Shown one piece after another: positions 8,153 to 25,434 of a stretch of 25,434 nt of DNA. Numbering within the stretch: position 1 is the stretch's first letter; every line of letters begins with the position of its first letter. Source of the stretch: an uncultured Actinomycetes bacterium. GTDB taxonomy: Bacteria; Actinomycetota; Coriobacteriia; Coriobacteriales; Atopobiaceae. The stretch lies in contig OMXZ01000026.1 in the NCBI GenBank assembly GCA_900315165.1, positions 1-25,434 on the forward strand, in the 5' to 3' direction. The notes under the pieces were generated by a model, which did not search any database, was not told the DNA's origin, and worked only from the letters and a program-made list of their open reading frames with translations. The position numbers and the translations under genes are program-made.

Positions 8153-8374
8153 GGTGGCAGGCCTCCCGGGCGATCGCCCGCGGTCGGGGGCGGCGCGCGT
8201 TCAGCTTGCCGGCGTGGTGCGCGCCGCCCGTGCTTGCGTTGTGGTGACAAGCATAGCGGCGTGCGTATTAATTAATTAATTAATGTGCAAAGCTGCGTCA
8301 GATTAATTAATGCGTCAACAAGAGGCCGGAAACGGCGTCAACAGACTGCAGCTCTACACTGGGTGGGTCTGGGG

Positions 8375-9055: not shown

Positions 9056-10282
9056 AAGTCCAGGTCAGCCAGCTCGTCCAAATCGTCAATCGCGGTGGTC
9101 ACCGTGCTCTCCACGACCTGCACCGAGGTCGCCACGCTCAGGTTGCCGTCGATGCCGGCCACGTCGTTCTGCAGAGCGGCCACGTCGGCGGCAAGCGAGC
9201 TCGTCACGGCGTAGTCGACCTGCCGCACCGTGCCGATGGTCACGCGGCAGACGACGGCATCCCCGAACGTGCGCACGCGCTTCACGACCCGCGCCTTGAG
9301 CCGCCACTCGGGAGTCATGCTCGAATCAACGACCGCAACCTCGTCGCCCAGCCCACACTCGCCGCCGTCCAGGGCCGCAACATCTATCTCGTAGGAGACC
9401 TTCGGCTGCACCGCATCCACGAACGCCTTCCTGGTGAGCGCGAGCAGCCTGGCAGGGTCGTCGCACTCCGAGAAGATCACCTGCCCGAACGAATGAACCT
9501 TCGCCGTCCTGTCGGCGTTCCAGCGGCCCCACACGAGCCGCGCGTCCTCGTCGCCGACCCAGTTGACGCCGCCGTTGACCTCGCCGAAGGTGAGCTTCTT
9601 TACGGTAGCCGCCCGTGTAACGCCCGTCCTCGTCGGTCACGGGAAGGCCCGCGCCGAACCCGTAGAGCGCCGTGTACACGTCCTGCTCCAGGACCGTGCG
9701 CGTGCATCCTGCCATGTTCTTGCCGTAGGTGAAGCGAAGCCCACGCCAGCTGCCGAGCCTTTGTCTGAAACGGATGGACCGGGAAGCCACGCGACCGCCA
9801 GCAACCATTATCACCGGCTCCACCTCGCCGCCCCAGACCTCGGCCACCCTTCACAGTGCCCAGAGCGCGTTCACGTGATAGAGCACGCATCCAGCCGTCC
9901 CAGCCACGTCGCACGACGCAACCGTCCAGCGCGTGGGAGCTAGCACGACCGCCAACGCCTGCGCCGCAGTGCGCGAGACCAGATGCTGCTCCTCGATGAA
10001 GTCGTCAAGCAGCTCGCACAGCGAGGACTCCGCATAAACCGAACGCAGCCCCTCAAGCGGCTCGTCGGTCCTCACCACCACATGCTCGCACCATACGCCG
10101 TCGTTAAGCCACAGCAGCCTATCGCCCTTCGCAGGTACCTCGCGGCACTCGAACTCCAGCGTGTCCTCGCCGTTAAGCTCCTCGGTGTGCACCAGCTCCC
10201 CAACTACGGGCAGCATCCCGATCCGCTCGTCGAACCGGTCGAACCACCACAGGACCGGAACCGCGCCCGCCATCACAGCCAC
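9052..10282 (-). pseudogene. Tal-like tail-associated/minor structural protein gene disrupted by an in-frame TGA (9851-9853) and a +1 frameshift near 9596-9603
   Basis: Three track ORFs (9851..10282, 9326..9847, 9052..9534) join into one protein-like sequence. The first two are in the same frame and separated only by TGA. The junction of the second and third is at cgtAAAGAAGctc, where frame A stops looking like protein and frame B starts. The N-terminus contains TEELNGEDTLEFE, typical of the N-terminal region of phage minor structural (anti-receptor) proteins. Confidence 0.5.
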
Positions 10283-10992
10283 CTCTCGGAGAACCGCGTC
10301 TCAAAGTAGCTGCAGCCGGCAAACGAAAGCGTGCATGCCCCAGGCTCAAGCGAGAAGAAGTCGCTCCCCAGCGTCACCACGTCACGTGCGTCAATGCCGA
10401 CAATCTCCACGGACTCGTCCTCGCAACGAATCACGACCGGCTCTCCACCCGCAAACGTGTAGTCCAGCGAGATCGCCTTGCCCTGCGCCAGGCATGCCAC
10501 GGCAAGGCCGTCGCCGGCAGACGCCACCAGACGGAACTCCGGCCACTTCGCCCACGACCCGCCAACCTCGAAAGAAGATGTCCGCTCCACGCACGAGCGC
10601 CCGTACGCCACGGGGTCGAATAGCGTGAAGGTCACGTCGCACTGCCCGTCGCTAAACAGCTTCGACCATTCGCCGATGTTGACCAGCAGCGCGTCGCGGT
10701 AAGCGTGCTCAGGCTCGTCGGGAAGCACCAGCTCGCCGCCGCCCGGCACGCACAGCAAGAATGCGAGCTTGTGCCGCGCCTCGGCAAGACCATTTACGTC
10801 AGCCTTGAAACCCAGGTCAAGGAACAGGCGCACCGTCACGTCCGACGCCGCCACACGCGAGGACACGGGCAGCGCCCCGGCCCGCCCCGGCACCTCCATC
10901 GCCGTGGCAACGAGCGAGTTCACGGATCGCCCGACCACTTCGGCGCTGCAGAGCTCCGAGAAGTCGTGCCCGGCGTAGACTATCGACCTCAT
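10273..10992 (-). CDS. siphovirus distal tail protein (Dit / Sipho_tail family)-like
   Basis: Length is 239 aa. It lies immediately upstream of the Tal-like gene, and its N-terminus fits the Dit pattern (MRSIVYAGHDFSE...IP.R.G). The ATGA start overlaps the upstream micro-ORF. Confidence 0.55.
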   Translation of the reverse strand: MRSIVYAGHDFSELCSAEVVGRSVNSLVATAMEVPGRAGALPVSSRVAASDVTVRLFLDLGFKADVNGLAEARHKLAFLLCVPGGGELVLPDEPEHAYRDALLVNIGEWSKLFSDGQCDVTFTLFDPVAYGRSCVERTSSFEVGGSWAKWPEFRLVASAGDGLAVACLAQGKAISLDYTFAGGEPVVIRCEDESVEIVGIDARDVVTLGSDFFSLEPGACTLSFAGCSYFETRFSERWL

Positions 10993-11135
10993 GCCCGCCC
11001 CCTCGCACGCCCGTATGCCACCGAGCGCCGCTGCGATTCCAGGGCCGCCTTGTCGTCTTGCCTGCGCGGTTGTTCACGCCGCACCACGGGCTCGGCCTCC
11101 CGCCCGCTCGCGTTAACGCGCTTCTCCTTATCCAT
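10989..11135 (-). CDS. 48-aa Arg/Glu-rich micro-ORF (MDKEKRVNASGREAEPVVRREQPRRQDDKAALESQRRSVAYGRARGRA)
   Basis: It fills the gap between flanking genes exactly, with ATGA overlaps at both ends and a GAGGGAG RBS. It is below the track size cut-off. Confidence 0.3.
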   Translation of the reverse strand: MDKEKRVNASGREAEPVVRREQPRRQDDKAALESQRRSVAYGRARGRA

Positions 11136-11521
11136 CAAAGCTCCCTCGCCACCGTGCAAACCACCTTGAACGACCAGACGCTGTGCCCGGAGTCGTCGTC
11201 GCCTTCGCAGGCGGGCACCGTCGTGTCTATGCCCACGATGCGGTATGGCGTCGCATCCGCATAGGGCTCCCAGTCGCCGCGCCTCACGGTCTGCTCCGCC
11301 AGGAGGGCCACGCGCCCCGCCTCGGATGCGACATCGCGCACCACGAGCACGGTCGCCGTCACGGTCCCGCGCTCCTCATCCGTCATGCGCGACTCGCGCT
11401 CGAACGGCCCCTCCGCCACGACGATCGGCTCTTCGCAGAGCAGCGCCGATACAGGTTTTGTGAAGCAACTTGTGAAGTCGGCGTCTACCAGCAGTTTTGC
11501 AATCGAATCTTTCACGCTCAT
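11135..11521 (-). CDS. phage head-tail joining / tail-completion-type protein (128 aa)
   Basis: The ATG at 11521 overlaps the upstream stop as ATGA. The track ORF is extended to 11578. It sits in the head-tail connector block. Confidence 0.45.
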   Translation of the reverse strand: MSVKDSIAKLLVDADFTSCFTKPVSALLCEEPIVVAEGPFERESRMTDEERGTVTATVLVVRDVASEAGRVALLAEQTVRRGDWEPYADATPYRIVGIDTTVPACEGDDDSGHSVWSFKVVCTVAREL

Positions 11522-11844
11522 CGCACGTCCAGCTCCCAGTGGTGAATGTGCCCGTTGAAGTCCTCGCACCGCGTACACCCAGCTACGAGGTAGGTGTTGC
11601 CGCCGATCGTCACCCGTGATCCGGCGGGCACCTCGAAGGCTCCGCCCGAGCTCACGGCATCAACGAACACTTTGCCCGCGCCCGCGTCGGCTGCACGGTG
11701 GGCGTCGTCGCAGATGGACTGGACGCGCTGGAACCTCACGCGCGAGATCGTCACGGGCTCGGCGAGCGTCCCGTCTTCAAGCGGCACGCGCACGCTCATG
11801 ACGTCCGGCAACAGCCGCACCGGTATCGGCCTCAGCCCGCCCAT
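11518..11844 (-). CDS. phage head closure / head-tail adaptor-type protein (108 aa)
   Basis: A coupled small gene between connector and tail genes. The call rests on size and position. Confidence 0.45.
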   Translation of the reverse strand: MGGLRPIPVRLLPDVMSVRVPLEDGTLAEPVTISRVRFQRVQSICDDAHRAADAGAGKVFVDAVSSGGAFEVPAGSRVTIGGNTYLVAGCTRCEDFNGHIHHWELDVR

Positions 11845-12185
11845 CAGCGCACCCCGCTGAACAAGAGCGACGTGCCCACCAGCTCCTTCAGCGCGGCGGA
11901 AGTCGCCATCTCCTCGCCGGTCGTGCCCTCATCCTCGTAATGCGTCACCTTGAAGTCGCCCAGGGCGAACCCGCCGACCTGCCCCTCGCCGAACTCCGCG
12001 AAGGCGTCCACAGCTGCGCACACGGACCGTTGGTAGGCTTCCAGCTCCAACTCCGCTGGCTCGGCGGCATTCACCAGCCACCGCACGTGGCGCGTCGCAG
12101 CTGGCAGCGAAAGCCCGAAGGCGGCCTCGGAAAGACTGCCCCCGTAAACTTCCGCATAGAACTGGTATGTCACCGCAGCGGCCAT
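11844..12185 (-). CDS. phage head-tail connector (gp6-like) protein (113 aa)
   Basis: First small gene after the major capsid gene. The call rests on position. Confidence 0.45.
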   Translation of the reverse strand: MAAAVTYQFYAEVYGGSLSEAAFGLSLPAATRHVRWLVNAAEPAELELEAYQRSVCAAVDAFAEFGEGQVGGFALGDFKVTHYEDEGTTGEEMATSAALKELVGTSLLFSGVR

Positions 12186-12187
12186 GG

Positions 12188-13219
12188 CTACGCGCTCGGT
12201 GCCGCGCTCACGTGGATGCCGTCGAGCTTGTTGTCGAACAGCTCCACGATGCCGTACTTGCGGTACTTCATCATGTAGCTGTCCAGGCTCTCCAGCTCGT
12301 CGGGCGAGAATACACGCGACGCCACGTGCTTGTCGAACTTAATAACCGCGCTTTTCTCAACCACCATGAAGTTGATGTCGCGCCCGGCCGCGCTCACTTG
12401 CTCGTAGTAGCCGGAAAGGCCGCTCTTGGTCGGGGAGGCCACGGCGCTGTAGGTGTAGCTGCCCTCGCTGCCGCTGCGCGTGTAGTAGGTCTTCGAGGAA
12501 TCGACCTCGGTGTCGCTCGTCAGCTCGTAGCTCGCCGCGCCCCTCTGGTATCCGAACTGGTCGTCGTCGCCGGAAAGCAGGTCGATGGCCGTGTAGAAGC
12601 GCACCTGCGACACCTCCACGATGCGGCTGAAGCGTTCCAGCACGCGGTTGGAGCGCGTGGGGTTGGCGTAGGAGAAGTCGTCAAGCACGCCCTTGAGCGT
12701 CGGCGTGATGAACAGGATGCGGCTGCCGGTTGACACCTGGCGCTCGTCCATCGTGCTCGTAACGGCGCGCAGGGCGGCAAGCACGTCGGTCGCTGCGGCC
12801 TCGGAGAGGTCTGCTGAATCCACTGTCACGCCCGCATGCGACGCGATCTTGGCGAAGGTGAAGGCGTCTGCCTCAGGTGCCACCTGGGTGCGCTGCAGCT
12901 CGGCTCCCGCCTCCACGAAGCAGTCCAGGACCCCGGCTTCCTCCACGTCCATGACGTCCGCGAACAGGCGGATGCCGCGATCGTAGTTGAAGGTCTTGGT
13001 TTCGAACTCGTAGGTGATGGCTCCGGTCTTGTAGCCCACGTTTCGGGTGTAGTCGCCAAGGCCCGTCACGGACATCTTCGGAATCATGATCTCCTTGGCG
13101 TTGTGCCCGGCCCTCACCATGCGCCGTCCTGAGTTGAGCACGTTGCTCACGCCCGCGCGCTGGTAGACCTCGTCGATGATGGAAGTGTAGTTCTTCGCGA
13201 ATGCGATGCTGTTAGGCAT
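12188..13219 (-). CDS. major capsid protein
   Basis: Length is 343 aa, with AGGAGG 8 nt upstream of the ATG. It follows the scaffold gene and has no TM helices. The call rests on position and composition. Confidence 0.65.
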   Translation of the reverse strand: MPNSIAFAKNYTSIIDEVYQRAGVSNVLNSGRRMVRAGHNAKEIMIPKMSVTGLGDYTRNVGYKTGAITYEFETKTFNYDRGIRLFADVMDVEEAGVLDCFVEAGAELQRTQVAPEADAFTFAKIASHAGVTVDSADLSEAAATDVLAALRAVTSTMDERQVSTGSRILFITPTLKGVLDDFSYANPTRSNRVLERFSRIVEVSQVRFYTAIDLLSGDDDQFGYQRGAASYELTSDTEVDSSKTYYTRSGSEGSYTYSAVASPTKSGLSGYYEQVSAAGRDINFMVVEKSAVIKFDKHVASRVFSPDELESLDSYMMKYRKYGIVELFDNKLDGIHVSAAPSA

Positions 13220-13237
13220 GCCTCTGCCCTCCTGTTC

Positions 13238-13756
13238 CTACTGCTTGTCGGTATCGTCTGAAAGCCCGGCGACCTCGCGCCAGTGCTTGAGCGTCTTGCC
13301 CTCGTCGGTTGCGGCACCGGCGTTGGGAAGCCCTGTCGCACCGGCAGCGCCCTCGTTCGCCATGTGCTTGGCGAACAGCCACGGCTCGCCAGCCTTGAGC
13401 TTGTCGATGTCGCCCTCGTAGTCGGGCAGCACGGCGCGCGCCGCCTTCACATTGCGGCATCCCGCGAGCTGAAGCGAGAAGTCAACGCGCTCGTCGGCGG
13501 ACTGCTGCTTGAGTGACGCGATCTCGCCACGAAGCTGCTCTGCCGTCTCGGCGTTCTTCGCCGCCTCGGCCACCTGCGCCTCAAGGGCCGCGATTTTCTC
13601 GTCGCGCCCGGCTATCTGCTTCTCGTAGTCGGGAGTCTGGCCGCCTACCTGCGGCTGGCCCTCCTGCTGTGTTTCCTGCTGCTCTTGGCCCTGCTGTTGC
13701 GACGCGTTCTCCGAACCCTGCGTGGCTTCCTGGCCGCCATTGGTCTCACCGTCCAT
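13238..13756 (-). CDS. head scaffolding protein (Gln/Glu-rich, coiled-coil)
   Basis: ATG at 13756 with an AAGGCGG RBS. The track start at 13792 is a TTG. It has a QQQGQEQQETQQEGQ low-complexity tract and coiled-coil character, and lies immediately upstream of the capsid gene. Confidence 0.65.
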   Translation of the reverse strand: MDGETNGGQEATQGSENASQQQGQEQQETQQEGQPQVGGQTPDYEKQIAGRDEKIAALEAQVAEAAKNAETAEQLRGEIASLKQQSADERVDFSLQLAGCRNVKAARAVLPDYEGDIDKLKAGEPWLFAKHMANEGAAGATGLPNAGAATDEGKTLKHWREVAGLSDDTDKQ

Positions 13757-13912
13757 GCTGTACCGCCTTTCGTTTCCTTGGACGGCCAACAAGAAGGCAG
13801 CCCACCAACCTGCGATGAGGTTAGCGGGCTGTCACAAGGTGGCTAAGCCAGGTATCGGATAGGCTTTAATTACCGTTTTACAAACGTGTCTGAAATGTTG
13901 CTGATCATTGGG

Positions 13913-15166
13913 CTACTTCCAGACTCGATCATTGTAAGGAGTGGATTCAACCCCTTCGGCCTGCAGGTTTTTAACCATCCGGTCTAGCTTTCCTCGCCAC
14001 ATGGCTTTAAACCAGCGAGTGTCACCGAACCAGCGAACGAGTGTTGGGCTTATAGCATAATATGCCTTGATGAACGCACGGCCACGACGAGTCTCTGCGA
14101 GAGTGTAATCGCGGTAACGTCGAAGCGTCCATACCTGCGGGCAATCATATGAACCGTATACCGCGGTAGCAACATAACAGCCGCCGCTTTGAGGTGTGGG
14201 CCTTTCAGGTATGGTGTAGGTTGGGTCTATTTTCTTGATTGCCTCATGCCATTCCATGATTTTGTCTGTACGCCCCTGTTTGGCAGCAGGAGTGAGTGTA
14301 TATTCATGTACCCATGAACCGCTAGACAAGGTCCACGACCACGAATTGATGAGTTTGTCTTGTACGCCAATCAAATTCTTATATCTGACAACGTCTGCCT
14401 CATCGTCACCATCATCTAGACCAATTGCGACCTCTAGTAGATTAAGGACGCAATCACCACGCTCGATATATTTCTCCCAACTGTACTTCATGGGGTGATC
14501 TTCGCCCCAGAAATCTGGCATGATATGATCGTTCCATGCGTCCATCGCACTATTGTTGATCATTGTGGCGAGCTGTGCATTGATGTCATCTGTAGACGTT
14601 CCACATTTGATTAAGAGTGCAAGCGCGGATGTTTTAACTTCTACTAAGCAAGAAAGAATCGTCGTCGCCTGTTCTTTGTAGCCTGTTTTGCCGAAGTTTC
14701 CACAACACAATCGCATGAGAGCGAGAGACAGCTTGGTTGTCTCCTCGCTTACGGTCTTTTTAACATCTTCAGACTTGTTTTCAGGAGCGTTCTCTACTGC
14801 GTTTGAAAAACAGTTTATCGCCTCGCCTATGCGCAGATTTGCGATGGTCGACTGCCAGCCAGCCGCTTTTCCCTTCAGGAGCCAGGCTTCGTAATTCTTA
14901 TCGTCTACTTCCAGGACCCTGTTGCAGTATTCCTCCGCTTCCTTTTGATTGTCTGCATCGTAGGCTTTTTTAGCTATAGACAGGTAGTTTTTAATTCGGT
15001 CCGACCTATCAACCTTAACGGTTCCAGTAACCTCTACGGTTCCCTCGACCATCATCTTCTTAGCTTCTTCGATCGAATACTTGCAGCCACACGATTGGCA
15101 GACAAACACACCTCCGTCTTTCATAAGGTCTGTGCTTCCGCACATTTCACAGGTCAACTGCTTCAT
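13913..15166 (-). CDS. Zn-ribbon (CEMCGS...CQSCGC) / TPR-like / conserved Cys-containing C-terminal domain (GGCYVATAVYGSYDCPQVWTLRRYRD) protein; last gene of the candidate defence operon
   Basis: Length is 417 aa. The ATG overlaps the upstream TGA as ATGA. GC is low, about 45%. Confidence 0.65.
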   Translation of the reverse strand: MKQLTCEMCGSTDLMKDGGVFVCQSCGCKYSIEEAKKMMVEGTVEVTGTVKVDRSDRIKNYLSIAKKAYDADNQKEAEEYCNRVLEVDDKNYEAWLLKGKAAGWQSTIANLRIGEAINCFSNAVENAPENKSEDVKKTVSEETTKLSLALMRLCCGNFGKTGYKEQATTILSCLVEVKTSALALLIKCGTSTDDINAQLATMINNSAMDAWNDHIMPDFWGEDHPMKYSWEKYIERGDCVLNLLEVAIGLDDGDDEADVVRYKNLIGVQDKLINSWSWTLSSGSWVHEYTLTPAAKQGRTDKIMEWHEAIKKIDPTYTIPERPTPQSGGCYVATAVYGSYDCPQVWTLRRYRDYTLAETRRGRAFIKAYYAISPTLVRWFGDTRWFKAMWRGKLDRMVKNLQAEGVESTPYNDRVWK

Positions 15167-15651
15167 TGATGTCTTCCTTTCTGGTTGTTTGTCTTTCCGA
15201 CTTCCACCTCTCTATAGATGCGATAGATAGAATCCAGGTAGCCTACGGGCATTGCAATATAAGATGTTTGCCCGTATTTCCCGAAATCCCTAAGCTCGGC
15301 GTAAGCTTTTCCGTTTACCATGTAAATCTCTACTTGCCCATGTGCGATTGCATTTCTAACGTGGCGAACGAACTCCTGGCCCTCGGACCCGTCACAAGAG
15401 AAGAGCGCGAAGGGAGTGCGCTTCCTGTTTCTCTTCGTACGAATGACGGGATAGCTATCAGCATTTGTCTTCCTCTTGAAGGTTCTGTCACCAAAACCCT
15501 CCAAGCGTTTCAGCTTCTTTGTAAATCTCCCTTTGCTCACCGCGTCCCAAGGCGTACCCGTAAAACGAGCATCATCAAACAGCCAGTCATAAAGAGCAGG
15601 CGCGTCCTCTAACAGCTTCTTTTCGTCAACCTGCTGGAAGAAAGACCCCAT
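15163..15651 (-). CDS. small HEPN-like protein (Rx4-6H motif RHVRNAIAHG), putative RNase effector
   Basis: Length is 162 aa. The RN..AH motif is characteristic of Abi/HEPN families. It is tightly coupled to both neighbours. Confidence 0.55.
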   Translation of the reverse strand: MGSFFQQVDEKKLLEDAPALYDWLFDDARFTGTPWDAVSKGRFTKKLKRLEGFGDRTFKRKTNADSYPVIRTKRNRKRTPFALFSCDGSEGQEFVRHVRNAIAHGQVEIYMVNGKAYAELRDFGKYGQTSYIAMPVGYLDSIYRIYREVEVGKTNNQKGRHQ

Positions 15652-15652
15652 C

Positions 15653-16321
15653 CTATTTCGACCCCTTTAAGACCATGCTTCTTTCGTCGATTAATCGGGA
15701 AAGCTCTCTCAGGCGATCCACCTCTAGGTCGCTATCAGCTTCAATAGCGCTTATTTGATCGCTGATCATCGCGTCGAGCTCGACAACTGCAGAAGTGCTT
15801 CGCTGGTCAGCAAAGCGCACCTTCTCAATAATCTCGTAAATCAACTTGCCGGATCCGTCGCTTGCGTCTACGGCAACGCTCAGGCGATTCAAACGCAAGA
15901 GCGCATCGCTCATGGCATTCGTTTCGTTCGAGACGTCTTGATCGACCTTGTTCGCATAATCCATGGCCTTGTCAGCGCCGATAGTGCAGGCGCAGCATAC
16001 TGCCAACAGCAGTATGCCGACAATGGCTAAGACAGCGATGCTGTCTGGCGCAATAAGGCAGATTGCCAGTCCGACAACCATTTGAACGACAAGGCATATC
16101 GCGGCGATTGCAAGCCTCGGATATGACCTGAACAGCCCCTCGGCACCAGGCTCGCGACGAGAAAGGCTTACTGCCAGGATCGATGCCTGCAAGACAGCGA
16201 ATAAGAGCGCGAGCCAAGTGGTGGTGTCGCAAACAGTCCCGATGACAAGTACGGCGGTGTACGCCACGACTAGGACCACGATGATGAGTAGTGAGGTGGC
16301 TTTGCCTTTCGCGCTTGCCAT
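15653..16321 (-). CDS. membrane protein with 4 N-terminal TM helices and a C-terminal coiled-coil domain
   Basis: Length is 222 aa. AGGAGG overlaps the SPFH stop codon. Hydrophobic segments are clear in the sequence. Confidence 0.6.
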   Translation of the reverse strand: MASAKGKATSLLIIVVLVVAYTAVLVIGTVCDTTTWLALLFAVLQASILAVSLSRREPGAEGLFRSYPRLAIAAICLVVQMVVGLAICLIAPDSIAVLAIVGILLLAVCCACTIGADKAMDYANKVDQDVSNETNAMSDALLRLNRLSVAVDASDGSGKLIYEIIEKVRFADQRSTSAVVELDAMISDQISAIEADSDLEVDRLRELSRLIDERSMVLKGSK

Positions 16322-16327
16322 ACGTTG

Positions 16328-17464
16328 CTACCTCCTTGTCCCGCATTCAGGGCAGAACTTCTCGGAAGGCTGGAACGGCCTGCCGCATTCGGAGCAGAAC
16401 TTCGCAACGGCGCCTGATGATGGATTTCCTTCCGATTCCGTTGCTTCTGGTTTAGGAACACCGCCTGGGCCAGCCGCTAGGTTAACCGTCCCCATGGCGT
16501 CCGACATCGCGCCGCCGACCATGTTGCCGACCGGCCCGCCAACGCCGGCAATCATGCCGAGGCCGATGCCCATGTTCAAGAATTCCCCGACGCCCTCGTT
16601 TGCAGCTACCTTTTCGGCCACATCGAAACCGCGCTCCTGCTGGTACGTGTAGCCCTCTATGCGACGTTTGTCCGCCGTGGCCGTAGCCTCGATGACCGTC
16701 TTCTTAGCCTCGGTCTCTTGGTTGATGACACCTACCTGCTGTTCGATTTGCGCCTCCCTTACATCGGCATACTGCCGGAAGTAGAGCTCGCGAAAACGCT
16801 CGTATATGGGGTCGCCCTCCGGTCGTATGACGGTGGTCACGAGGAACTGGGTCAGCTCGATGCCATACTCAGCAAAATCGGGACGCAACCGGTCCTTCAC
16901 GTCATCGGACAGCTCGCCAAGATGGGCATCCAGCTCGAATATGCTCAGCTTCTGCTGCTGTATCGCCTGGACCAAAGCGGCTTTGACCCTCGTCTGGAGG
17001 AACGCCTTGAAGTACGCGATCAGTTTGTCTTGGGAGAGAATCGCCTCGGTCCCCACGATCTTGACGAGGAGTTTCTTCGCTTCGCGCACGGCGAGCGCCA
17101 TCTCGCCCGAGACCCCGATGGAGAGGGGGAACCCGAATTCGGGCTCCATATACTGCACTTTGGAATTGGTGCCCCAGGCGATGCCCATCTGCTCCGTGAG
17201 GTTGATGAAGTAGACCTCGGCATGGAACGGCGACACGCCACCACTGGGGAGGTTGACAATCTTGTTCACGAGCGGGAGATTCTGGGTCTCGAGCGTGTGG
17301 CGTCCGGGACCGAACAGGTCGAGAGCCTGTCCGTTCAGGAAGAATATCGCCTCCTGCGACTCATGGACGATGAGCTGGGAAGCGGTGTTGAAGTCCTCGC
17401 TTGGATGCTTCCAGACGAATGTGCGGTTGTCGCCCTCATACTTGATGACGTCTATGATGCTCAT
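16328..17464 (-). CDS. SPFH/Band-7 domain protein with Gly/Met-rich linker and C-terminal double CxxC zinc ribbon (COG4260, B. subtilis YdjI-like)
   Basis: It is trimmed to the ATG at 17464 (MSIIDVIKYEGDNRTFVWKHP...). The 17494 start is a GTG. The N-terminal pattern and the C-terminus KFCSECG...KFCPECG match YdjI-type proteins. Confidence 0.8.
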   Translation of the reverse strand: MSIIDVIKYEGDNRTFVWKHPSEDFNTASQLIVHESQEAIFFLNGQALDLFGPGRHTLETQNLPLVNKIVNLPSGGVSPFHAEVYFINLTEQMGIAWGTNSKVQYMEPEFGFPLSIGVSGEMALAVREAKKLLVKIVGTEAILSQDKLIAYFKAFLQTRVKAALVQAIQQQKLSIFELDAHLGELSDDVKDRLRPDFAEYGIELTQFLVTTVIRPEGDPIYERFRELYFRQYADVREAQIEQQVGVINQETEAKKTVIEATATADKRRIEGYTYQQERGFDVAEKVAANEGVGEFLNMGIGLGMIAGVGGPVGNMVGGAMSDAMGTVNLAAGPGGVPKPEATESEGNPSSGAVAKFCSECGRPFQPSEKFCPECGTRR

Positions 17465-17480
17465 GTAAAGTAGGCCCCCA

Positions 17481-17620
17481 TCGAAAACGTACACGTTTTG
17501 GAGGGGCGAAAAACTTGGTCGGGCAGGGTTGCAGTTGGCCTATTTGCTGGGCATATGCAAAGGTCGCTAGCGTATAATGACCCACTAAGTGACAAAAGCA
17601 AAACGTGTAGTTTTTGGTGC
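17481..17620. promoter_or_regulatory. two about 24-bp imperfect inverted repeats (tcgAAAACGTacACGTTTTggagg at 17481-17504; gcAAAACGTGTAgtttttggtgc at 17598-17620) flanking a roughly 90-bp spacer that carries a perfect TATAAT (17573-17578) on the plus strand and a perfect TTGACA (complement of 17621-17626) on the minus strand
   Basis: Read directly. It lies between the SPFH operon start and the 3' end of the serine invertase gene. It is a candidate for hix-like recombination sites or repressor operators. Confidence 0.3.
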
Positions 17621-17658
17621 TGTCAAATTCTCCGCTTTACCTGCTAAGACGCCATTAT

Positions 17659-18273
17659 TCAGTCATTGCCATCATCGGTGGCATCTTCCTTGAGCCATCG
17701 ATCGAAGGTGCTTGCAGAAACCTTGAGTCGCGTGGCCGCCTCTTGCCTTGTCAGGTGCCCTCCGAGGTAGGATTCCTTCGTGCTCGTATAGCACGCCGGA
17801 CGCTTCTTTTTCGGTCTGCCGAATCGCACACCACGTGCCTGAGCTGCGGCGATGCCCTCCGCCTGCCGCTGCTTGATGTTCTCTCGCTCCATCTGGGCAA
17901 CGTAGGATAACAGTTGCAATACGATGTCCGAGATGAGCACGTTCGTCAGCCCGTCGCGGTGGTTGCGCGTGTCGAGCAGGGGCATGTCGAGAACAACTAT
18001 GGCAGCGCCGCGCTCCTTCGTGAGCAACCTCCACTGCTCCAAAATCTCATCGTAATTGCGCCCGAGTCTGTCGATGCTCTTGATGACGACCACGTCTTCT
18101 GGTCGGAGCGCTCTAAGGAGACGCTGGTATTCGGGACGTGCAAAGTCTTTGCCGCTCGCTTTGTCCATGAACACGTTATCCCGATTGACGCCGAACTCTG
18201 CAAGCGCGTCGAGTTGCCTGTCGAGGTTCTGGTCGCGCGTGGATACACGCGCATAGCCGTATACGCTGCCCAT
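17659..18273 (-). CDS. small serine recombinase, DNA invertase/resolvase type (Hin/Gin/Pin-like) with C-terminal HTH
   Basis: The N-terminus YGYARVSTRDQNLDRQ carries the catalytic Ser. Length is 204 aa, and the C-terminal HTH is RQEAATRLKVSASTFDRWL. Confidence 0.85.
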   Translation of the reverse strand: MGSVYGYARVSTRDQNLDRQLDALAEFGVNRDNVFMDKASGKDFARPEYQRLLRALRPEDVVVIKSIDRLGRNYDEILEQWRLLTKERGAAIVVLDMPLLDTRNHRDGLTNVLISDIVLQLLSYVAQMERENIKQRQAEGIAAAQARGVRFGRPKKKRPACYTSTKESYLGGHLTRQEAATRLKVSASTFDRWLKEDATDDGND

Positions 18274-18496
18274 ATGATTGCCTTTCTGCTAGGTTACCTT
18301 TGTCCAAGAAAGGCGATCAGTTGCAACATCTGGCTGTTTTTCATACCGCTCCATTTGCATCTCGTACCAGCTCCGATGCTGCATTGGCGCATTCCTCGAA
18401 CCTTAGAACTCGCAGCGTAGGCGGTGGTCACAAGCGGGAGTTTTGAAGAGCGGTCACAGCAGTTAATGCCTCTTTGCATGTTGCCGTAAGAGGCTC

Positions 18497-18525
18497 TTGA
18501 CTTCTTACGTGTAACGTCTTACTGT
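18497..18525 (+). promoter_or_regulatory. candidate promoter of the RHH-YfbU gene (TTGACT, 17-nt spacer, TACTGT) with an ACGTGTAACGT motif in the spacer (operator-like)
   Basis: Read directly. The AGGAAGG RBS follows at 18553-18559 and the ATG at 18565. Confidence 0.35.
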
Positions 18526-18564
18526 ATGACACGACAAGTATTGCACATACGAAAGGAAGGCTTC

Positions 18565-19284
18565 ATGCCAACCGTGTCAATCAGAGTAAGCGACGAGCTC
18601 AAGTCTCGGCTCGACACGCTTGCGCAGGAAAGCGAGAGCACGCTGTCGGGTGTCATCGTCGAAGCGCTCAACTCCATTACCGGACTCGGCCGCGAGGACT
18701 ATCCCGAGGAGACGGCGCCCTACACCATCAACAACGCGAACCGACTCATCCTTCGCAACACCGAGCTGCTGCTCGCGCACTGCTCGGACCTTGACGAGGA
18801 CGAGCGCGAGTCCCATGCGAAGAACGTCACAATCCTTGAGGAGGGCTTCACGGGCGAGTATCACCACGTCTTCGCCGCGCTGCGCCCGGAGATTCCCAAC
18901 GCGCGCTGCGACGAGCTCTTCGACATCCTCGACATGTTCCGTGTGCTCAGGGCGTCATACAACAAGCTCCCAGACGACGAAAAGGTGCAGATCGAAGAAC
19001 GCGACATCTCGTTTCGCGGCTTCGACTACAGTGACGACGAGGAGACGGCCCTTCCCGGTTACGTCGAGTACCTGTTCGCCGACGACCGCTACACCGAGCT
19101 CGCCGAACCGCTTTCCCGCTTCTCTGACGGCGGCAACTCTCACCACCGCAACCTCGACATCTACCGCCGGATGCTGCGCTGCTTCAACCAGCTGTGGCGC
19201 AAGCACATCATCAGCTTCGACCTGCTAAGCCTCGACGAGATCAAGCAGGTCGTGTCCGCCGCCCCCTACAATTCCGGCTATTAG
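18565..19284 (+). CDS. fusion protein: N-terminal ribbon-helix-helix (CopG-like) DNA-binding domain plus C-terminal YfbU (UPF0304) family domain
   Basis: It is trimmed to the ATG at 18565 with an AGGAAGG RBS. The N-terminus VSIRVSDELKSRLDTLA has the RHH signature. The C-terminus (NNANRLILRN...ERDISFRGFDYSDDEE...YRRMLRCFNQLW...LSLDEIKQVVSA) appears collinear with E. coli YfbU, which is recalled from memory. Confidence 0.65.
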   Translation: MPTVSIRVSDELKSRLDTLAQESESTLSGVIVEALNSITGLGREDYPEETAPYTINNANRLILRNTELLLAHCSDLDEDERESHAKNVTILEEGFTGEYHHVFAALRPEIPNARCDELFDILDMFRVLRASYNKLPDDEKVQIEERDISFRGFDYSDDEETALPGYVEYLFADDRYTELAEPLSRFSDGGNSHHRNLDIYRRMLRCFNQLWRKHIISFDLLSLDEIKQVVSAAPYNSGY

Positions 19285-19296
19285 GAGGCGATCGAA

Positions 19297-20298
19297 ATGG
19301 CAGGCAACGCCAATCTGGCCCAGGCGAAAGCAGCGCACAAGAGGCCGATGCTCAGCGTGAGCCAGCAGATTGAGCGCCTGAAGGAGAAAGGCCTGACGTA
19401 CGACCTGTGCGACGAGGCCCAGGCTGCCGACATCCTCGCGAAGAAGAACAACTACCTACGCATAACCTCGTACCGAAAGCTATACGAGCGTCAGATGGAA
19501 GGCCCCAACGTCGGCAAGTACGTCAACCTCGATTTCGGCGACCTCGTGGCGATTTCGTCACTCGACAGGCAGCTGCGCGAGGCTTTCCTCACGATGACAA
19601 TCGACGTCGAGCATTTCGCCAAGTTGAAGGTGCTCTCGCAGCTCGAGAAGGAGGGCGAAGACGGCTACGCAATCGTCACGGACTTCTACGCAAGCCTGAA
19701 CCATGCAGGGCGCAACGCCATCCAAGGCGCCATGAAGGTTCGCGGCGGCGAGGGCGAGCGTCACGACGCGTACGCCGGGGACCTCATAGCCCATCACCTG
19801 CAAGACATGCCGGTCTGGGTGTTCCTGGAGGTTATCGACTTCGGGACGTTCGTCGACTTCTACCTGTTCTGCGCAGGCCGATGGCACAACGACGCAATGC
19901 TGCAAGAGCACTACGCGCTCAAGAGCGTCAAGGCGCTGCGAAACGCCACGGCACATAACCATTGCATTCTGAACGGTTTCACGAGGGCCGAGGCACGCGC
20001 AGGGTACACCACGCCGCAAGCCATCACCGACTCGCTGAATGCGGCGGGCATGCCAAGGACGAAGGCCAGGCGCGCCAAGCTCTCCAACCTCCGCATCGCC
20101 CAAATGGCAGCAACCCTGTACTGCCTGAGCACGCTCTGCACGAGCGAGTCCGCCATGGCGCGGCATGCCCGGAGACTCGCCGCGGTCCATGCCGCATACG
20201 AGGCCCATATTGACCGTTACCGCCTGAACAGCTCGTTTGTGTCGTTCTTCGACTTCCTGTTCCGTCTCGTTGACATCTGGGTGCCATGCGGGACATAA
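19297..20298 (+). CDS. abortive infection protein, Abi_2 (AbiD/AbiF-like) HEPN family
   Basis: The N-terminus has the typical motif KRPMLSVSQQIERLKEKGLTYD...NNYLRITSY. The HEPN motif LRNATAHNHCIL is present. Length is 333 aa. Confidence 0.8.
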   Translation: MAGNANLAQAKAAHKRPMLSVSQQIERLKEKGLTYDLCDEAQAADILAKKNNYLRITSYRKLYERQMEGPNVGKYVNLDFGDLVAISSLDRQLREAFLTMTIDVEHFAKLKVLSQLEKEGEDGYAIVTDFYASLNHAGRNAIQGAMKVRGGEGERHDAYAGDLIAHHLQDMPVWVFLEVIDFGTFVDFYLFCAGRWHNDAMLQEHYALKSVKALRNATAHNHCILNGFTRAEARAGYTTPQAITDSLNAAGMPRTKARRAKLSNLRIAQMAATLYCLSTLCTSESAMARHARRLAAVHAAYEAHIDRYRLNSSFVSFFDFLFRLVDIWVPCGT

Positions 20299-20310
20299 TG
20301 GCATCACATG

Positions 20311-20327
20311 AAAAACCTTCGGGTTTG
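20311..20327 (+). terminator. short hairpin with UUCG tetraloop (aaacc ttcg ggttt) 13 nt after the Abi_2 stop
   Basis: Read directly. The U-tract is weak (uuugu). Confidence 0.35.
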
Positions 20328-20602
20328 TAGGGGCGGGGTCGCGCAAGCGGTCTCGCTCCAGTTTTTTGTGCCTCGGTCAGGCTTAATGACCTGAAGAAGC
20401 CGCACGTCAACCATCGCTGCGCGGTAATACGACAAGCAATCCTCACGTTGTCGAATTTATCTATGCCGCCAGTCCTGGCCGCTGGCCCGCGCGCGTGCTG
20501 CCAACCACGGGCTGGGCCGCAGCCCGGCCGCCCGCGCTCCGGGTGTGCGCTCGGGCCGTTCGTGCCGCATGCCGTCCATGGCGCAGGCAAGTCTCCCGTT
20601 AC

Positions 20603-20707
20603 GGCCACAGGGGCAAACGGTGCGCGTCTTCACCACGGCTACGCCAGCCGCTTCGCGTCTGGCTCCGCAGCATCGGGTTCAGCCACGCACCGTTTGCCCC
20701 TGTGGCC
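20603..20707. repeat. perfect 22-bp inverted repeat (ggccacaggggcaaacggtgcg at 20603-20624 / cgcaccgtttgcccctgtggcc at 20686-20707) enclosing a 61-nt loop, inside an about 850-bp GC-rich tract with no convincing ORF
   Basis: Verified base by base. ORFs in this tract are mutually overlapping and have junk-like composition. Confidence 0.6.
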
Positions 20708-21074
20708 TACTGCAGCTCTCACTGATGCGCCATGGCCGCCATGCGTCACGCCCGGCCAGCGGCGCACACCCTACGCGCGGTCGTCCGGTCTGCTGCGTTT
20801 TCCGGCTCGTCCGCACGCACACGGTCCATCGTCCAGGGCGGGCGGCATAGACCTCTCGCCAGCCTCCATGTCCGGCTCCCTTGCCAGCGGCAGCTGCAGC
20901 GACACCCAGGGCACTAGCGGCCGCCAGCGCGTCCCAGACAGCCCCATATGAGGCCGTATCGGACCCGTGACAGCTCCACCAGCCAACGCACGCCACCCCA
21001 AATGCTGCCGAACCTGAAACCCGCTCCTACGGGCTTGCGACGGCCCCGTCAGGCCACCCACTGCGCCAAACATA

Positions 21075-21125
21075 AAGCACCCCGCACGGGAGGCTCCCAG
21101 CCAGCCGTACGGGGTGCTGTGTCGG
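21075..21125 (-). terminator. rho-independent terminator of the portal gene (9-bp stem agcaccccg/cggggtgct with nested GGGAG/CTCCC, followed on the minus strand by TTTATGTTT)
   Basis: Read directly. It lies about 28 nt downstream of the portal stop. Confidence 0.5.
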
Positions 21126-21145
21126 CTCGTGATGCTCTTGCAAAC

Positions 21146-22630
21146 CTATTCGGTGCCATTGCGCATGCCGACGCTCCCGACGCCCACCTCGGAGGCGCGA
21201 GAACGAGCGACGGCCTCCTCTTCTCCGTACCACTTGGCGCGGTACTCCCAGGCAGCCATGGTGACACCAACCTCGCGCATGTCCTGCTCCTTCTCGGCGG
21301 CGGTGTCCTGGATGATGCTGTCGTCATACTGCACGCGCACGGAACCCTCCTCGGGGATCTGCTCGCCGAACCCGCGCGACACTGCCATGACGGCGCGCGC
21401 GATGCCCGCGATGGCCCCCTCCAGGCTGTTCTCATGCCGGCGGATGTTGCGCATCAGGGCCGAATTGTCCGAGCTCACCTCGGTAGCCGTCTTGACGTAC
21501 CCGCGCGAGTCGTCCATGTCGAAGTAGTTGATGCCGAAGCCGGTGAGGTCGCCGAGCATCTGCAGGGCCACGCGGAACGCCTCGATCTGCCCGCTGGTTC
21601 TAAGCGCAGGCGCGAACTCCTGGATGGTGTCCTCCGTGCTCATGACCTTGCGGAAGACGGTGCAGTCCTGCTTGCCGAACGGGATGGTGACGTTCTTATT
21701 CCCGTCCTGCTCGCGGTCGAAAAGGACATCCGACAAGAACACCCTCATCTTGCTCAGGTCGATCTCGTTGATGAGAGCGTCGAAGGTGAGGTCCACGGCC
21801 TGCACCGCATCCACCGCATCCGCGAAGACGCTCTGGCCATAGGGCGACATATCCACGCGAGTGTTTGTGACCGCCGGCTTGACGATGCCGAAGGTGGGGA
21901 AAGGGCAGCCCGTATCATAGATCGGGAGGATGCCCACCGGCGCGAGCTCGTTGCCCTCGTGGTCGAAGCACACGGTGACGATCCTATAGGTCTCCTCGCT
22001 TTCATTGGTGAGAAGACCTTCCGCGCATTCAGGTGAAGGTGTGGAAGGTGAAGAAGAGTCAGGCGAGAAGACCATGCCGCCCTTGAGGTGCATCTGCAGC
22101 TGGTCCACGGCCTTGCCACGGTAGAAGGCACGCGTGACGAAGGCGCATTCGCTGATGCCGTCCTCGTCCCAGCTCAGGGGAATGACCATGCGAGCGTCAT
22201 AGTGGCGGATGCGAACCTTCCTCTTGCCCAGGTCGATCCACAACGCCCAGGCACCGGTGCCGAGCCCGAAGGCACGTACCACGGTGGCCTGCGCCGCGTT
22301 CATGAAGTTCGTGGAAGAGAAGAACGAGTTGATCCAGTCGGTGGCCTTCTGGTTCTCGCAGACGACCTTCACTTACTCGTTGAGGAGAAGGGATCCCCAC
22401 TCCTTGCACACGCGCATAGCCGGGTGAATGCTCCTACGGTGAACCGCATACACGCGCCCCATACCGTCTTTGTCCCTGTAATCGTAGAATTCCCCGCGCG
22501 CGCTCATCCAGTCATCCCACGAGCGGATCCACGGCTCCATGTCATCCAGGGGAAGAACAAACCCGAGCTTGCGCAGATAGTCCTTAACATGCTCCGGCAC
22601 CCAGTATTCGTCGAGACCATTAGCGCCCAT
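21146..22630 (-). pseudogene. phage portal protein gene (SPP1 gp6-like family) interrupted by an in-frame TAA at 22373-22375
   Basis: Track ORFs 22373..22630 (85 aa) and 21146..22372 (408 aa) are in the same frame and separated by a single TAA. Combined length is about 494 aa. The portal-like segment is VKTATEVSSDNSALMRNIRRHENSLEGAIAGIARAV. A strong GGAGGTGACGC RBS lies before 22630. Position between terminase and scaffold fits. Confidence 0.6.
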
Positions 22631-22751
22631 GCGTCACCTCCGATAGTCCGGCCGATAAGGTCAGGTGAAGTGTCCGCTGCCGTCACAAACAGCCGCGTGC
22701 CTTAGAATGTCGAGAAGAGCTTTCTGTTCGATAAGAGAAGCCGAGGAGAAC

Positions 22752-23501
22752 ATGCAGAACAGGTACACGGGCGACATAGGCGACTACAGCAAGCTGGGCC
22801 TGCTCCGGGCTCTGCAGTCGGCAGGCTTCTCGATAGGGCTCAACTGGTACCTCACGCCAGACGAGACGCACAACAGCGACGGCCGCCACGTTGGCTACCT
22901 TTACCAGGACGAGTATCGCGAATGCGACCCAGGCCTCTGGCTCGGCCTCAAAGCAATTGTCGATGGAAAGAACCGAGAAGTTCGTTACATGGAAAACGAC
23001 AACATCCTGCAGGCAACGTTCTTCTCCGACTGCCTCGACTTTTCCGATGATGATGGATGCGGAAAGCGTAAGTGCAAGCCAAAAGCCGAGAGAACCGCGC
23101 TTCGTGGTGATTGGTTCGGAAGATCTCTCGCCCTGTTGGCGGGAAAAGACATCGTGTGCGTTGATCCAGACAACGGCCTGGTCGTACCCTCCGCCTTGGG
23201 TAGGCCGAAGGAGAACAAGTACGTCCTACCCGAAGAGCTCGCCAGGTACTACGCCCAGGGCTCCACGGTCGTCTACTACCAGCACAAGGCAAGGCGAAAG
23301 GACTCCTTCTACACGGATCAGCTAAAGGCGCTGTTGAGAAGAGAAGACCTCCTCGGAGCTTCTGGCATTGCGTTGAAGTTCGAGAAGGTCTCGCAGCGCT
23401 ACTACATGTTCATCACCCAGCCAAGGCATAGGGAGATGGTCGAGAAGACCGTGAGGGACATGCTTTCGACTGACTGGGGAAAGCACTTCCGCCAGCTCTG
23501 A
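22752..23501 (+). CDS. hypothetical protein (249 aa; motifs GDIGDYSKLG, VCVDPDNGL) encoded opposite to the phage late genes between terL and portal
   Basis: It is trimmed to the ATG at 22752 with GAGGAG 4 nt upstream. Coding-like composition. No domain recognised. Confidence 0.5.
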   Translation: MQNRYTGDIGDYSKLGLLRALQSAGFSIGLNWYLTPDETHNSDGRHVGYLYQDEYRECDPGLWLGLKAIVDGKNREVRYMENDNILQATFFSDCLDFSDDDGCGKRKCKPKAERTALRGDWFGRSLALLAGKDIVCVDPDNGLVVPSALGRPKENKYVLPEELARYYAQGSTVVYYQHKARRKDSFYTDQLKALLRREDLLGASGIALKFEKVSQRYYMFITQPRHREMVEKTVRDMLSTDWGKHFRQL

Positions 23502-23512
23502 CACGCAATCGC

Positions 23513-23647
23513 TTAGGCGCCAATAAGGGCGAGAAGAGCCAACGTCACCAAGGCGCACGCCAGCAGCCGCATGAACTCGAGCACTGCGAGAAGAGCACAG
23601 ATGCCGACGGCAATAAGAATGGCGAGAAGAACGATGAGAAAAGCCAT
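23513..23647 (-). CDS. 44-aa hydrophobic peptide (MAFLIVLLAILIAVGICALLAVLEFMRLLACALVTLALLALIGA), two predicted TM segments
   Basis: The ATG is 3 nt after the terL stop, with a GAGGT RBS. It is below the track cut-off. Confidence 0.3.
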   Translation of the reverse strand: MAFLIVLLAILIAVGICALLAVLEFMRLLACALVTLALLALIGA

Positions 23648-23650
23648 TGC

Positions 23651-24940
23651 CTAACCTCGCAATACGTCGTCCATCATGGCATAGCGAACAGCGTCAATGC
23701 TGTGATCGTTGCCATCCGGGATCTCGTCGATCCAGTTGCCCTCCTTGTCCTTCTCGAACTCCTTCAAGGTGAATTCGGAGAAGGTCAAGGGGCACCGCTC
23801 TGGGTCAATCACGATCTCGCGCAGCCCTGCCAGCCATTCGTAAGACAAGCGCCTCATCCTGGCCTTCCTGGCCGCATGCACGCGGATGCCGAGCTCGCGT
23901 CTCCACACGTTCATCTGCACTTTGCTGTCCGGCGTGTCGTCGCAGTAGACAATCTGGTCGTGAAAGTACGCCTCCGCGCCCTGCTCGTCTGGGAAGGTGA
24001 GAGAATCGACCACGATCTTGCCCGTCTCCGCCGGCATCATCTTGTTCGCCGAGTGCTCCTCGAAGATGAGAAGGCGTCGCGCGTCAGGCTCCCAGGCACA
24101 GCGGACAAAGCGCCAGGGATCCGGGAACCAGCCCCAGTCCACGCCATTGCGAATGCGTTGGAAGGTGCGAATGCGAGAGTCGGAGAGCTTCGCCTCGTGC
24201 ACGTTGTCGAAGACGGCGCCGCCGGTCCCGGTGATCTCTCCCAGATACTCCCAACGCCAGGCCTGCTCGTTCGTGTCGCGCAGGTACTCCGCCTCCTCGA
24301 CGAACGGCGCTCCCAGCCAGTCGGGGTGCGTCTCGATCACATCGAGATAAGAGCTACCGCGCACAAGGGTGTCATCACGCCTCACACGTTCCAGGCGCTC
24401 CACGTTCACCCAGCTCCACATCGTCTTCGGCGGGTTGTAGGAATAGAAGATCCAGAAGCGGTCGCCGCCACGGCGCAGAGAATTCAGAATCGAGCGAACC
24501 GCCTCCACGCCCTCGAACTGGTCCAGCTCCTCGAACCACACGACAGAGCAATAGCCCTTGGTGAACTTCACGCCCTTGAGCTTGAGCGGGTCGTCCGCAC
24601 CGCGGAACACGATGCGCTGCCCGGTAGGGGTGTAGGTGATCTCCATGGGAGAAACGCGGCAGCGGAACACGCCCTCCAGGCCAAGCACCTCGATGGCCCA
24701 CTGTATCTGCTGGTACACCGAGTCACGCAGGGTGTTGGAGAAGCGCCTCACCACCACCGCGTTGGCCTTCGGGTTGGCGATGATGAGAAGTACGATCGCA
24801 ATGCTGATGAAGGAGGACTTGGTCGAGCCGCGCCCGCCCGGCAGCCAGTAGTGCGTGTGGCCGTGGGCCATCACGTCGCCAAGCACCGGGTGGAAGCGCG
24901 GGATGACGAAGTCGGAGACGTTAGTCGCCATTCGCGTCAC
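23651..24940 (-). CDS. terL: terminase large subunit (PBSX/XtmB-type)
   Basis: Walker A HYWLPGGRGSTKSSF. Length is 429 aa, with a C-terminal nuclease-type region. It overlaps the terS 3' end. Confidence 0.85.
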   Translation of the reverse strand: MTRMATNVSDFVIPRFHPVLGDVMAHGHTHYWLPGGRGSTKSSFISIAIVLLIIANPKANAVVVRRFSNTLRDSVYQQIQWAIEVLGLEGVFRCRVSPMEITYTPTGQRIVFRGADDPLKLKGVKFTKGYCSVVWFEELDQFEGVEAVRSILNSLRRGGDRFWIFYSYNPPKTMWSWVNVERLERVRRDDTLVRGSSYLDVIETHPDWLGAPFVEEAEYLRDTNEQAWRWEYLGEITGTGGAVFDNVHEAKLSDSRIRTFQRIRNGVDWGWFPDPWRFVRCAWEPDARRLLIFEEHSANKMMPAETGKIVVDSLTFPDEQGAEAYFHDQIVYCDDTPDSKVQMNVWRRELGIRVHAARKARMRRLSYEWLAGLREIVIDPERCPLTFSEFTLKEFEKDKEGNWIDEIPDGNDHSIDAVRYAMMDDVLRG

Positions 24941-25355: not shown

Positions 25356-25434
25356 GGTGCCACCTCCTCACGGTGGCATGTTCCTAGCGCGTCACAAACT
25401 GGGGCTAACAAGGGGTGAAAGGGTGCAAAGGCCG

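Follow-up and report, generated by a model that had tools for sequence, protein, structure and literature searches.

The window analysed here is a stretch of 25,434 nucleotides (nt) spanning contig OMXZ01000026.1 (assembly GCA_900315165.1) from an uncultured bacterium of the family Atopobiaceae, and it carries a prophage whose portal and scaffold genes are separated by a long interval of accessory genes. This interval is very probably a hotspot for accessory (defence) genes that is built into a lineage of temperate phage-like elements in the class Coriobacteriia. Across the lineage the slot keeps one order: an element rich in guanine and cytosine (GC) with conserved structure, 5-10 kilobases (kb) of interchangeable cargo, the motif YTTGTGACR with a stem-loop, and the scaffold gene. 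The structured element, a giant hairpin, is previously uncatalogued and is the most novel part of the locus.

Window genes were mapped by listing open reading frames (ORFs), determining third-position GC and scanning the Pfam, NCBIfam, PHROGs and PADLOC families. Relatives, labelled with L-numbers, were gathered by portal protein (22 IMG/VR and 35 genome loci), followed by a further 48 loci gathered by major capsid protein; the Dit protein, used as a query, returned no close relatives among viral contigs, and the capsid protein served instead. The portal-matched relatives all belong to the Coriobacteriia (Olsenella, Atopobiaceae, Gordonibacter, Raoultibacter and Eggerthellaceae). Megablast of positions 12000-25434 and blastn of the GC-rich tract found no match among 50,697 deposited phage genomes.

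As a preliminary description of this DNA had stated, about 7.3 kb separate portal and scaffold in the window (portal ORF end, 21146; scaffold ORF start, 13792 or 13756). The corresponding gap measures 4961-10181 nt in 16/16 in-group loci carrying both genes, compared with 2108-2709 nt in seven outgroup loci, whose portal is 22-33% and whose capsid protein is 35-47% identical. The in-group layout recurs as portal, a tract of 70-78% GC, cargo of 47-58% GC with large ORFs, and scaffold. Cargo sets vary from locus to locus, including between close relatives, and none of the window's cargo genes is present among the portal- or capsid-related loci. PADLOC systems were recognised in all nine related cargo sets scanned (E 1e-30 to 1e-239): IetA/IetS (IetAS) with a methyltransferase in L038; PDC-S06 with a PglX-like methyltransferase in L044; type IIG restriction-modification in L013; a type I/MADS-like system with HEC-05 in L034; type III restriction-modification with a methyl-directed restriction enzyme in L017; MzaB/C/E (Mza) in L018; type II restriction-modification with a Ppl-like protein in L003; HKD+Snf2 with type III restriction-modification in L001; and a weaker match to a type II restriction enzyme in L010. 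The slot therefore combines three properties of a defence hotspot, namely shared core flanks, differing content and enrichment in recognised defence systems.

The window's own cargo (13843-20435) is a mosaic of a mobile cassette and a YfbU-AbiD pair. The cassette, comprising resolvase, SPFH, membrane and HEPN genes and the first ~45 codons of the next gene, shares 88.7-88.9% DNA identity over 3431 nt with three non-phage integrative elements (L122-L124); a tyrosine integrase is encoded by two of these and a relaxase by one. They share its gene order (resolvase, SPFH, membrane protein, 162-amino-acid (aa) protein, fifth gene), and in them AIPR, Z1/DUF4420, GmrSD and methyltransferase genes lie nearby. 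DNA homology to these elements stops at 15030; the C-terminal 380 codons of the fifth gene, encoding the TPR and CFI-box-CTERM parts, differ from the counterpart elsewhere (357 aa), suggesting a swappable module. The 162-aa protein has homologues with PF18736 (pEK499_p136), a HEPN family linked to conflict systems (PMC3710099), and an RNAIAH motif is present in the window copy. The resolvase-SPFH-membrane-HEPN-zinc-ribbon/TPR set is a candidate mobile defence cassette; no PADLOC model recognises it, and in the literature on SPFH, HEPN and anti-phage defence no paper among the top matches mentions SPFH. The second cargo segment is the YfbU-AbiD pair, which has its own terminator. AbiD matches Pfam Abi_2 (E=2.2e-21; 77.5 bits against a gathering cut-off of 25.6) and PADLOC AbiD (E=7.9e-21), and its translation shows LRNATAH, a HEPN Rx4-6H motif, in agreement with Abi_2 membership. 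The YfbU protein encoded immediately upstream matches Pfam YfbU (E=1.6e-34) and, over a short N-terminal part, YlcI/YnfO. Cargo genes are intact throughout, those of the cassette having the same or nearly the same length as their homologues.

The preliminary description had assigned to this region only defence-type genes and a recombinase. AbiD/Abi_2 and a small serine recombinase are indeed present, but none of the SPFH, membrane, zinc-ribbon/TPR/CFI-box and YfbU proteins is an established defence protein. Its estimate of about 4.7 kb at 45-50% GC was too high, as 200-nt windows below 50% GC total only ~1.65 kb and those below 55% ~2.9 kb. The variable cargo averages 54.8% GC, compared with 62-66% in the phage backbone, and the third-position GC of the YfbU and AbiD genes (0.81-0.83) is phage-like.

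Between the cargo and the portal gene lies the GC-rich tract, which holds no credible ORF, as had been described. For 20300-21145 the folding energy is -491.8 kcal/mol (z=-14.4) on the minus strand, compared with -428 (z=-5.9) on the plus strand; the core of the fold is a giant imperfect hairpin, here designated class 1. Homologues at about 75-83% identity, sought with nhmmer profiles, lie downstream of the portal in many loci. In an alignment of 16 class-1 sequences, the consensus comprises 110 pairs with 97.5% of cells paired, and 32 pairs show changes on both sides, a number reached by 0/500 column shuffles; control partners slid by 1-3 columns were just 22-42% paired. A.G mismatches recur every 3-5 base pairs (bp) along the stem. 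Indels of only 1-2 nt, hence not multiples of three, occur in the alignment and argue against coding; together with a PHROGs scan of the tract's four chance ORFs, which gave no match, they led us to reject a coding reading.

A second class of hairpin occurs in L001-L006, L010, L012, L014, L023, L029, L044, L049 and L054. The five full-length copies that were aligned measure ~515 nt and form a Y with two apical arms and 207 pairs; some other copies are shorter. Common to both classes is an apical module of ~60 nt, GGCTGA(A/G)C...CAGACC-stem-loop-GGGCTG...G.GAAGAC, found in 46 copies, every one on the portal strand and in the post-portal tract. Covariation at columns 11/83, 12/82 and 19/75 supports a symmetric register with a 2x2 tandem-GA loop and one G.A mismatch; a kink-turn was rejected because this register, backed by the covariation, leaves no three-nucleotide bulge. 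Hairpin class does not track portal phylogeny: the closest portal relatives, L001 and L023 (94% identical), carry class 2, and the closest hairpins, in L072 and L074 (83%), follow portals just 67-68% identical to that of the window, indicating that modules reassort. Deletion derivatives include a shortened stem without apex in L007, L009, L039, L013 and L032 and the 3' arm alone in L041 and L046. L041 has the same cargo as L044, whose element is complete. In L007, L027, L039, L044 and L057, which have a long portal-hairpin gap, a small conserved ORF ending ...DPDGKVGFRLVK lies 0-770 nt after the portal; it has no Pfam match and is absent from the window.

The hairpin corresponds to no catalogued RNA. 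An Rfam search at gathering score across the window gave no match, and permissive scans returned only weak matches (miRNA-type hairpins, Pseudomon-Rho, Pyrobac-1 and ZMP-ZTP), far below the cut-offs. With no covariance-model match at or near gathering score, GOLLD, ROOL, group II introns, 6S and all other Rfam families were rejected. A scan for tRNA and tmRNA found none. When IMG/VR was scanned with an 18-mer, 13 of 17 matches fell on the element behind genes of this portal family, the other four being chance matches inside unrelated ORFs. A degenerate apical-module pattern gave at least 120 matches in metagenome contigs; the pattern was too loose, none of the matches listed fitting the module profile or adjoining a portal gene. 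A rho-independent terminator was rejected for the giant hairpin, since its 3' base is followed in the window and in relatives by the A-rich sequence GGCGGCAUAGAUAAAUUC and not by a U-run.

Both borders of the slot are sharp in sequence. The hairpin base reads GGCGGCA(A/G)A.AAA, and homology beyond it ends ~8 to >100 nt away depending on the locus; such variable breakpoints argue against a fixed site-specific crossover. An integron-like attC cassette system was likewise rejected, there being no conserved integrase at the slot and no constant breakpoint, and the window's resolvase being part of the mobile cassette and absent from the relatives. On the other side, homology resumes in relatives at YTTGTGAC(A/G), followed by a stem-loop that is always present with variable sequence and by a T-rich run. 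The small hairpins at 21076-21118 (also present in L013), 20330-20359 and 13831-13798 have the make-up of a rho-independent terminator, with a U-run right behind a GC-rich stem.

The border motif YTTGTGACR occurs five times in the window, always on the late-gene strand, against 0.57 copies expected, and 0/100 shuffles reach five. Four copies sit 34-75 nt upstream of the TerS, portal, scaffold and left-end unit starts; the fifth, within the cargo, may be a chance occurrence. In relatives the late strand has 108 copies and the opposite strand 7, and the motif stands upstream of 17/23 distinct TerS starts and 17/19 distinct scaffold starts. It was found upstream of none of the 139 distinct starts of the major capsid protein, orf113, Dit, Tal and LRR450 genes. 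The motif is a putative late promoter or regulator site.

These features suggest how the slot might work. Late genes would be arranged as separate units (TerS-TerL, portal, and scaffold onwards), each preceded by YTTGTGACR, so that cargo placed between two units would leave late expression uninterrupted; separate units with their own signals would explain the tolerance of 5-10 kb of foreign DNA. The cargo could use its own signals for expression in the lysogen, and would be closed off by terminators at both sides and exchanged through recombination in the conserved flanks. The giant hairpin would most likely be an RNA transcribed at the portal unit's 3' end, where it could act as an end-protecting, processing or insulating element, or form a separate non-coding RNA. 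The interval between TerL and portal, which holds a 278-aa gene on the opposite strand, would be another such gap between units.

Several findings weigh against this account. AbiD is the sole gene in the window's cargo that PADLOC recognises, and the strict YTTGTGACR motif stands upstream of only 14/46 distinct portal starts in relatives. We infer both the late-unit structure and the RNA reading of the hairpin from sequence. Class 2 is almost perfectly Watson-Crick paired and lacks strand asymmetry (G.U in 9 cells, A.C in 7), a pairing that fits a DNA palindrome as well as an RNA. The apical module is present in 28/45 distinct in-group loci, and the element is truncated or half-deleted in 17/45, which implies that it is not needed for prophage persistence. 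Finally, the stretch from the capsid gene to Dit contained no recognisable tape-measure or major-tail gene, either in the window or in ~30 relatives.

The preliminary description proposed a different origin, in which a single insertion of a defence island replaced or destroyed a minor head gene, leaving wreckage rich in GC. Its premise that the position after the portal normally holds a minor head gene was borne out: outgroup phages carry Phage_min_cap2 (PF06152) there (E 1e-49 to 1e-92), and tblastn with four outgroup proteins located the gene directly after the portal in L056 and L108-L121. The same queries, at E up to 1, found no match in the window or in any in-group locus, and the translated search for a remnant at 20.3-21.1 kb returned nothing from PHROGs or tblastn. 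This lack of residual translated similarity argues against a degraded minor head or minor capsid gene, whether of gp7/MuF or min_cap2 type, in that segment. As the gene is missing from the whole in-group without a detectable remnant, its loss is old and lineage-wide, and was not caused by this island. A one-off insertion also predicts an uninterrupted junction in relatives, but the 5-10 kb gap is present in every in-group locus holding both genes (16/16), with the same architecture and unrelated cargo. The supposed wreckage is a conserved element with compensatory changes and indels that are not multiples of three. Although the cargo has a lower GC content than the backbone and this copy is defective, a single insertion is hardly credible; the earlier observation was largely right, but the cause it gave and its reading of the tract were wrong. 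It is also improbable, if less so, that the whole lineage consists of domesticated or satellite-like particle-forming elements whose main role is to carry defence cargo, and not of true phages. The lack of a minor capsid gene and of recognised tape-measure and major-tail genes would suit such elements, as would the defence systems in every cargo set scanned, but most relatives have conserved, intact genes for packaging, head, Dit, Tal-like and fibre proteins, and many copies are called viral contigs in IMG/VR.

As a further alternative, the giant hairpin could act as DNA instead of RNA, either as a long imperfect palindrome or cruciform or as a single-stranded fold, at which replication is primed or stalled or breaks arise; the adjacent site would then be recombination-prone, which would have given rise to the hotspot. 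The class-2 copies, being near-perfect nested palindromes without strand bias, fit this possibility, and the internal deletions and one-arm losses are frequent, as expected of unstable palindromes. Many apical loops contain GCGAAGC, a sequence that forms a very stable DNA mini-hairpin, and the missing U-run leaves no canonical terminator. On the other hand, the late-gene strand gives the more stable fold in 16/16 class-1 copies, by 15-37 kcal/mol, and in mostly Watson-Crick pairs G.U cells outnumber A.C cells by 42 to 11 (18 vs 6 pairs, p=0.02), a test that is suggestive and not decisive because the aligned sequences are related to each other. Since G.T wobble is tolerated in single-stranded DNA, the strand test separates RNA from single-stranded DNA incompletely. 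The GA-rich apical motif, 8 bp long and invariant between covarying stems, suggests a specific fold and not a generic palindrome. On this evidence a DNA role is possible but doubtful. A bolder proposal, which we rate as a long shot, would make the hairpin a new large structured phage RNA that took over the min_cap2 slot and perhaps part of its role. It might then serve as a portal-associated or packaging-related RNA, for which phi29 pRNA is the model, or control the expression or exchange of the adjacent defence cargo, with the invariant GA-rich apical module recognised by a phage or host protein.

The prophage in the window is probably in decay, a carrier of defence genes, unless its lesions are assembly errors. 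The portal gene is cut by an in-frame TAA (22375-22373) into parts of 85 and 408 codons, making it a pseudogene in this copy; the window reads LLLNE*VKVV where 18 relatives have E, D or N, the codon being GAA in L001. The 408-codon portal ORF given previously is just the piece downstream of this stop. The Tal-like gene (phrog_12312; 9052-10300, minus strand) contains a stop codon, TGA at 9853-9851 (CGG in L090), and a frameshift from a single inserted nucleotide near 9601, in contrast to the single ORF of 427-449 codons kept by relatives. The Tal-like and fibre genes, adjacent in relatives, are ~4.3 kb apart in the window. The segment between them (5469-9055) encodes an HXXEE protein on the plus strand together with three transposon genes, for a DUF6431 protein, an rve/Mu-type transposase and an AAA_22 ATPase, whose third-position GC is 0.94-0.98; region 5469-8152 has 73% GC. 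A 20-nt inverted repeat lies within this segment at 7673-7692 and 8295-8314. The portal stop, the Tal-like lesions and the transposon genes in the tail module speak against an intact, inducible prophage. The element was earlier judged to be a carrier and not a viable virus; it does carry accessory anti-phage cargo and is probably non-viable, but owing to lesions elsewhere and not to the island.

The features of the slot and its neighbours are listed in Table 1. The scaffold, which forms the conserved right flank, is 44-80% identical to the copies in relatives and starts at 13792 (TTG) or 13756 (ATG). The 278-aa gene between TerL and portal has no family match; about half of the relatives carry a copy 61-95% identical to it, and the rest have other sequence there. 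From this pattern the interval looks like a second, smaller variable slot. Downstream of the scaffold, the gene order in the window (9052-13219) and in L075-L107 is capsid, three small genes, Dit, Tal-like, collagen-like fibre and leucine-rich-repeat (LRR) protein. The missing recognisable tape-measure and major-tail genes are unusual for a Dit-bearing element. The fibre gene (2838-4778, minus strand) encodes long collagen-like Gly-X-Y repeats, with 9-nt periodic direct repeats at 2967-3699.

Table 1 Features of the portal-scaffold slot and neighbouring genes in the window
Feature	Position	Strand	Basis or remark
YTTGTGACR	25390-25398	-	35 nt upstream of TerS start
TerS	24921-25355	-	ORF listing and family scans
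TerL	23651-24940	-	ORF listing and family scans
278-aa gene	22665-23501	+	Between TerL and portal, opposite strand
YTTGTGACR	22681-22689	-	51 nt upstream of true portal start 22630
Portal	21146-22630	-	494 codons; phrog_533 E=1.8e-67, profile positions 89-477
Terminator-like stem-loop	21076-21118	-	Directly after portal stop, then CTTTATGTTT; inverted repeat
ORF-less tract	20436-21145	-	68.9% GC; structured part 20436-21075
Class-1 giant imperfect hairpin	20450-20852	-	~400 nt; arms ~20460-20634 and ~20676-20851
Apical module	20626-20684	-	GGCTGAAC...CAGAC-stem-loop-...GTGAAGAC, invariant G.A mismatches
Intrinsic-terminator-like hairpin and T-run	20330-20359	+	Ends YfbU-AbiD unit
AbiD/Abi_2	19297-20298	+	Pfam, PADLOC
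YfbU-domain protein	18526-19284	+	Pfam, NCBIfam
Mobile cassette	15030-18455	-	
Small serine resolvase	17659-18273	-	Family scans
SPFH/Band_7_1 protein with zinc ribbon	16328-17494	-	Pfam
Membrane protein	15653-16321	-	Family scans
162-aa pEK499_p136-type HEPN protein	15163-15651	-	HEPN via homologues
YTTGTGACR	15390-15398	-	Inside cargo HEPN gene
417-aa zinc-ribbon/TPR/CFI-box-CTERM protein	13913-15166	-	NCBIfam NF041770 E=3.2e-21; weak TPR matches
Right border	13798-13838	-	CTTGTGACA motif 13838-13830, stem-loop 13831-13798, T-rich run, scaffold start
Scaffold	13238-13792	-	Pfam Phage_scaffold E=6e-6
Major capsid protein	12188-13219	-	ORF listing and family scans
YTTGTGACR	212-220	-	Precedes next unit at left end of window

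This locus brings the concept of phage-borne defence hotspots to gut Actinomycetota (Coriobacteriia). It also indicates that a hotspot can lie among the head genes, where the loss of a minor capsid gene has left a slot free. Its sharp borders, the GGCGGCA(A/G)A hairpin base and YTTGTGACR with its stem-loop, provide a simple handle for mining new defence systems in these bacteria, one candidate being the resolvase-SPFH-membrane-HEPN-zinc-ribbon/TPR cassette, which is also found on other mobile elements. The giant hairpin, supported by covariation and absent from Rfam, offers a concrete new object for RNA or DNA-structure biology.

P2-like phages and their P4-like satellites have been described as carrying phage-encoded hotspots of antiviral systems (Rousset et al. 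2022, PMC9122126). As in those hotspots, conserved phage genes flank a defence-rich slot whose content varies among close relatives. Cargo in the P2/P4 hotspots lets the prophage protect its host; for the Coriobacteriia cargo, protection is predicted from its genes. The present slot differs in belonging to another phage lineage with Coriobacteriia hosts, in lying within the head-gene block where the outgroup has a minor capsid gene, and in being bounded by a 400-600-nt structured element on one side and a short motif with a stem-loop on the other. The minor capsid protein 2 family PF06152 fills the same slot in outgroup loci and is absent, without detectable remnant, from the window and the in-group. 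Like AbiD, AbiD1 and AbiF of Lactococcus, the 333-aa cargo protein matches Abi_2 and PADLOC AbiD and has an RNxxxH HEPN motif, the Abi_2 family having been placed in the HEPN superfamily (Anantharaman et al. 2013, PMC3710099); unlike them, its gene follows a YfbU-domain gene in a prophage of a high-GC Gram-positive host. The giant hairpin resembles the GOLLD and ROOL RNAs (PMC12286853) in being several hundred nt long, non-coding and prophage-borne, with a conserved structure and no known function. Unlike GOLLD and ROOL, it has no Rfam sequence or structure match. In contrast to their multi-domain architecture, it forms a very long, near-continuous helix or a Y-shaped version of it, and its position is fixed just downstream of the portal gene.

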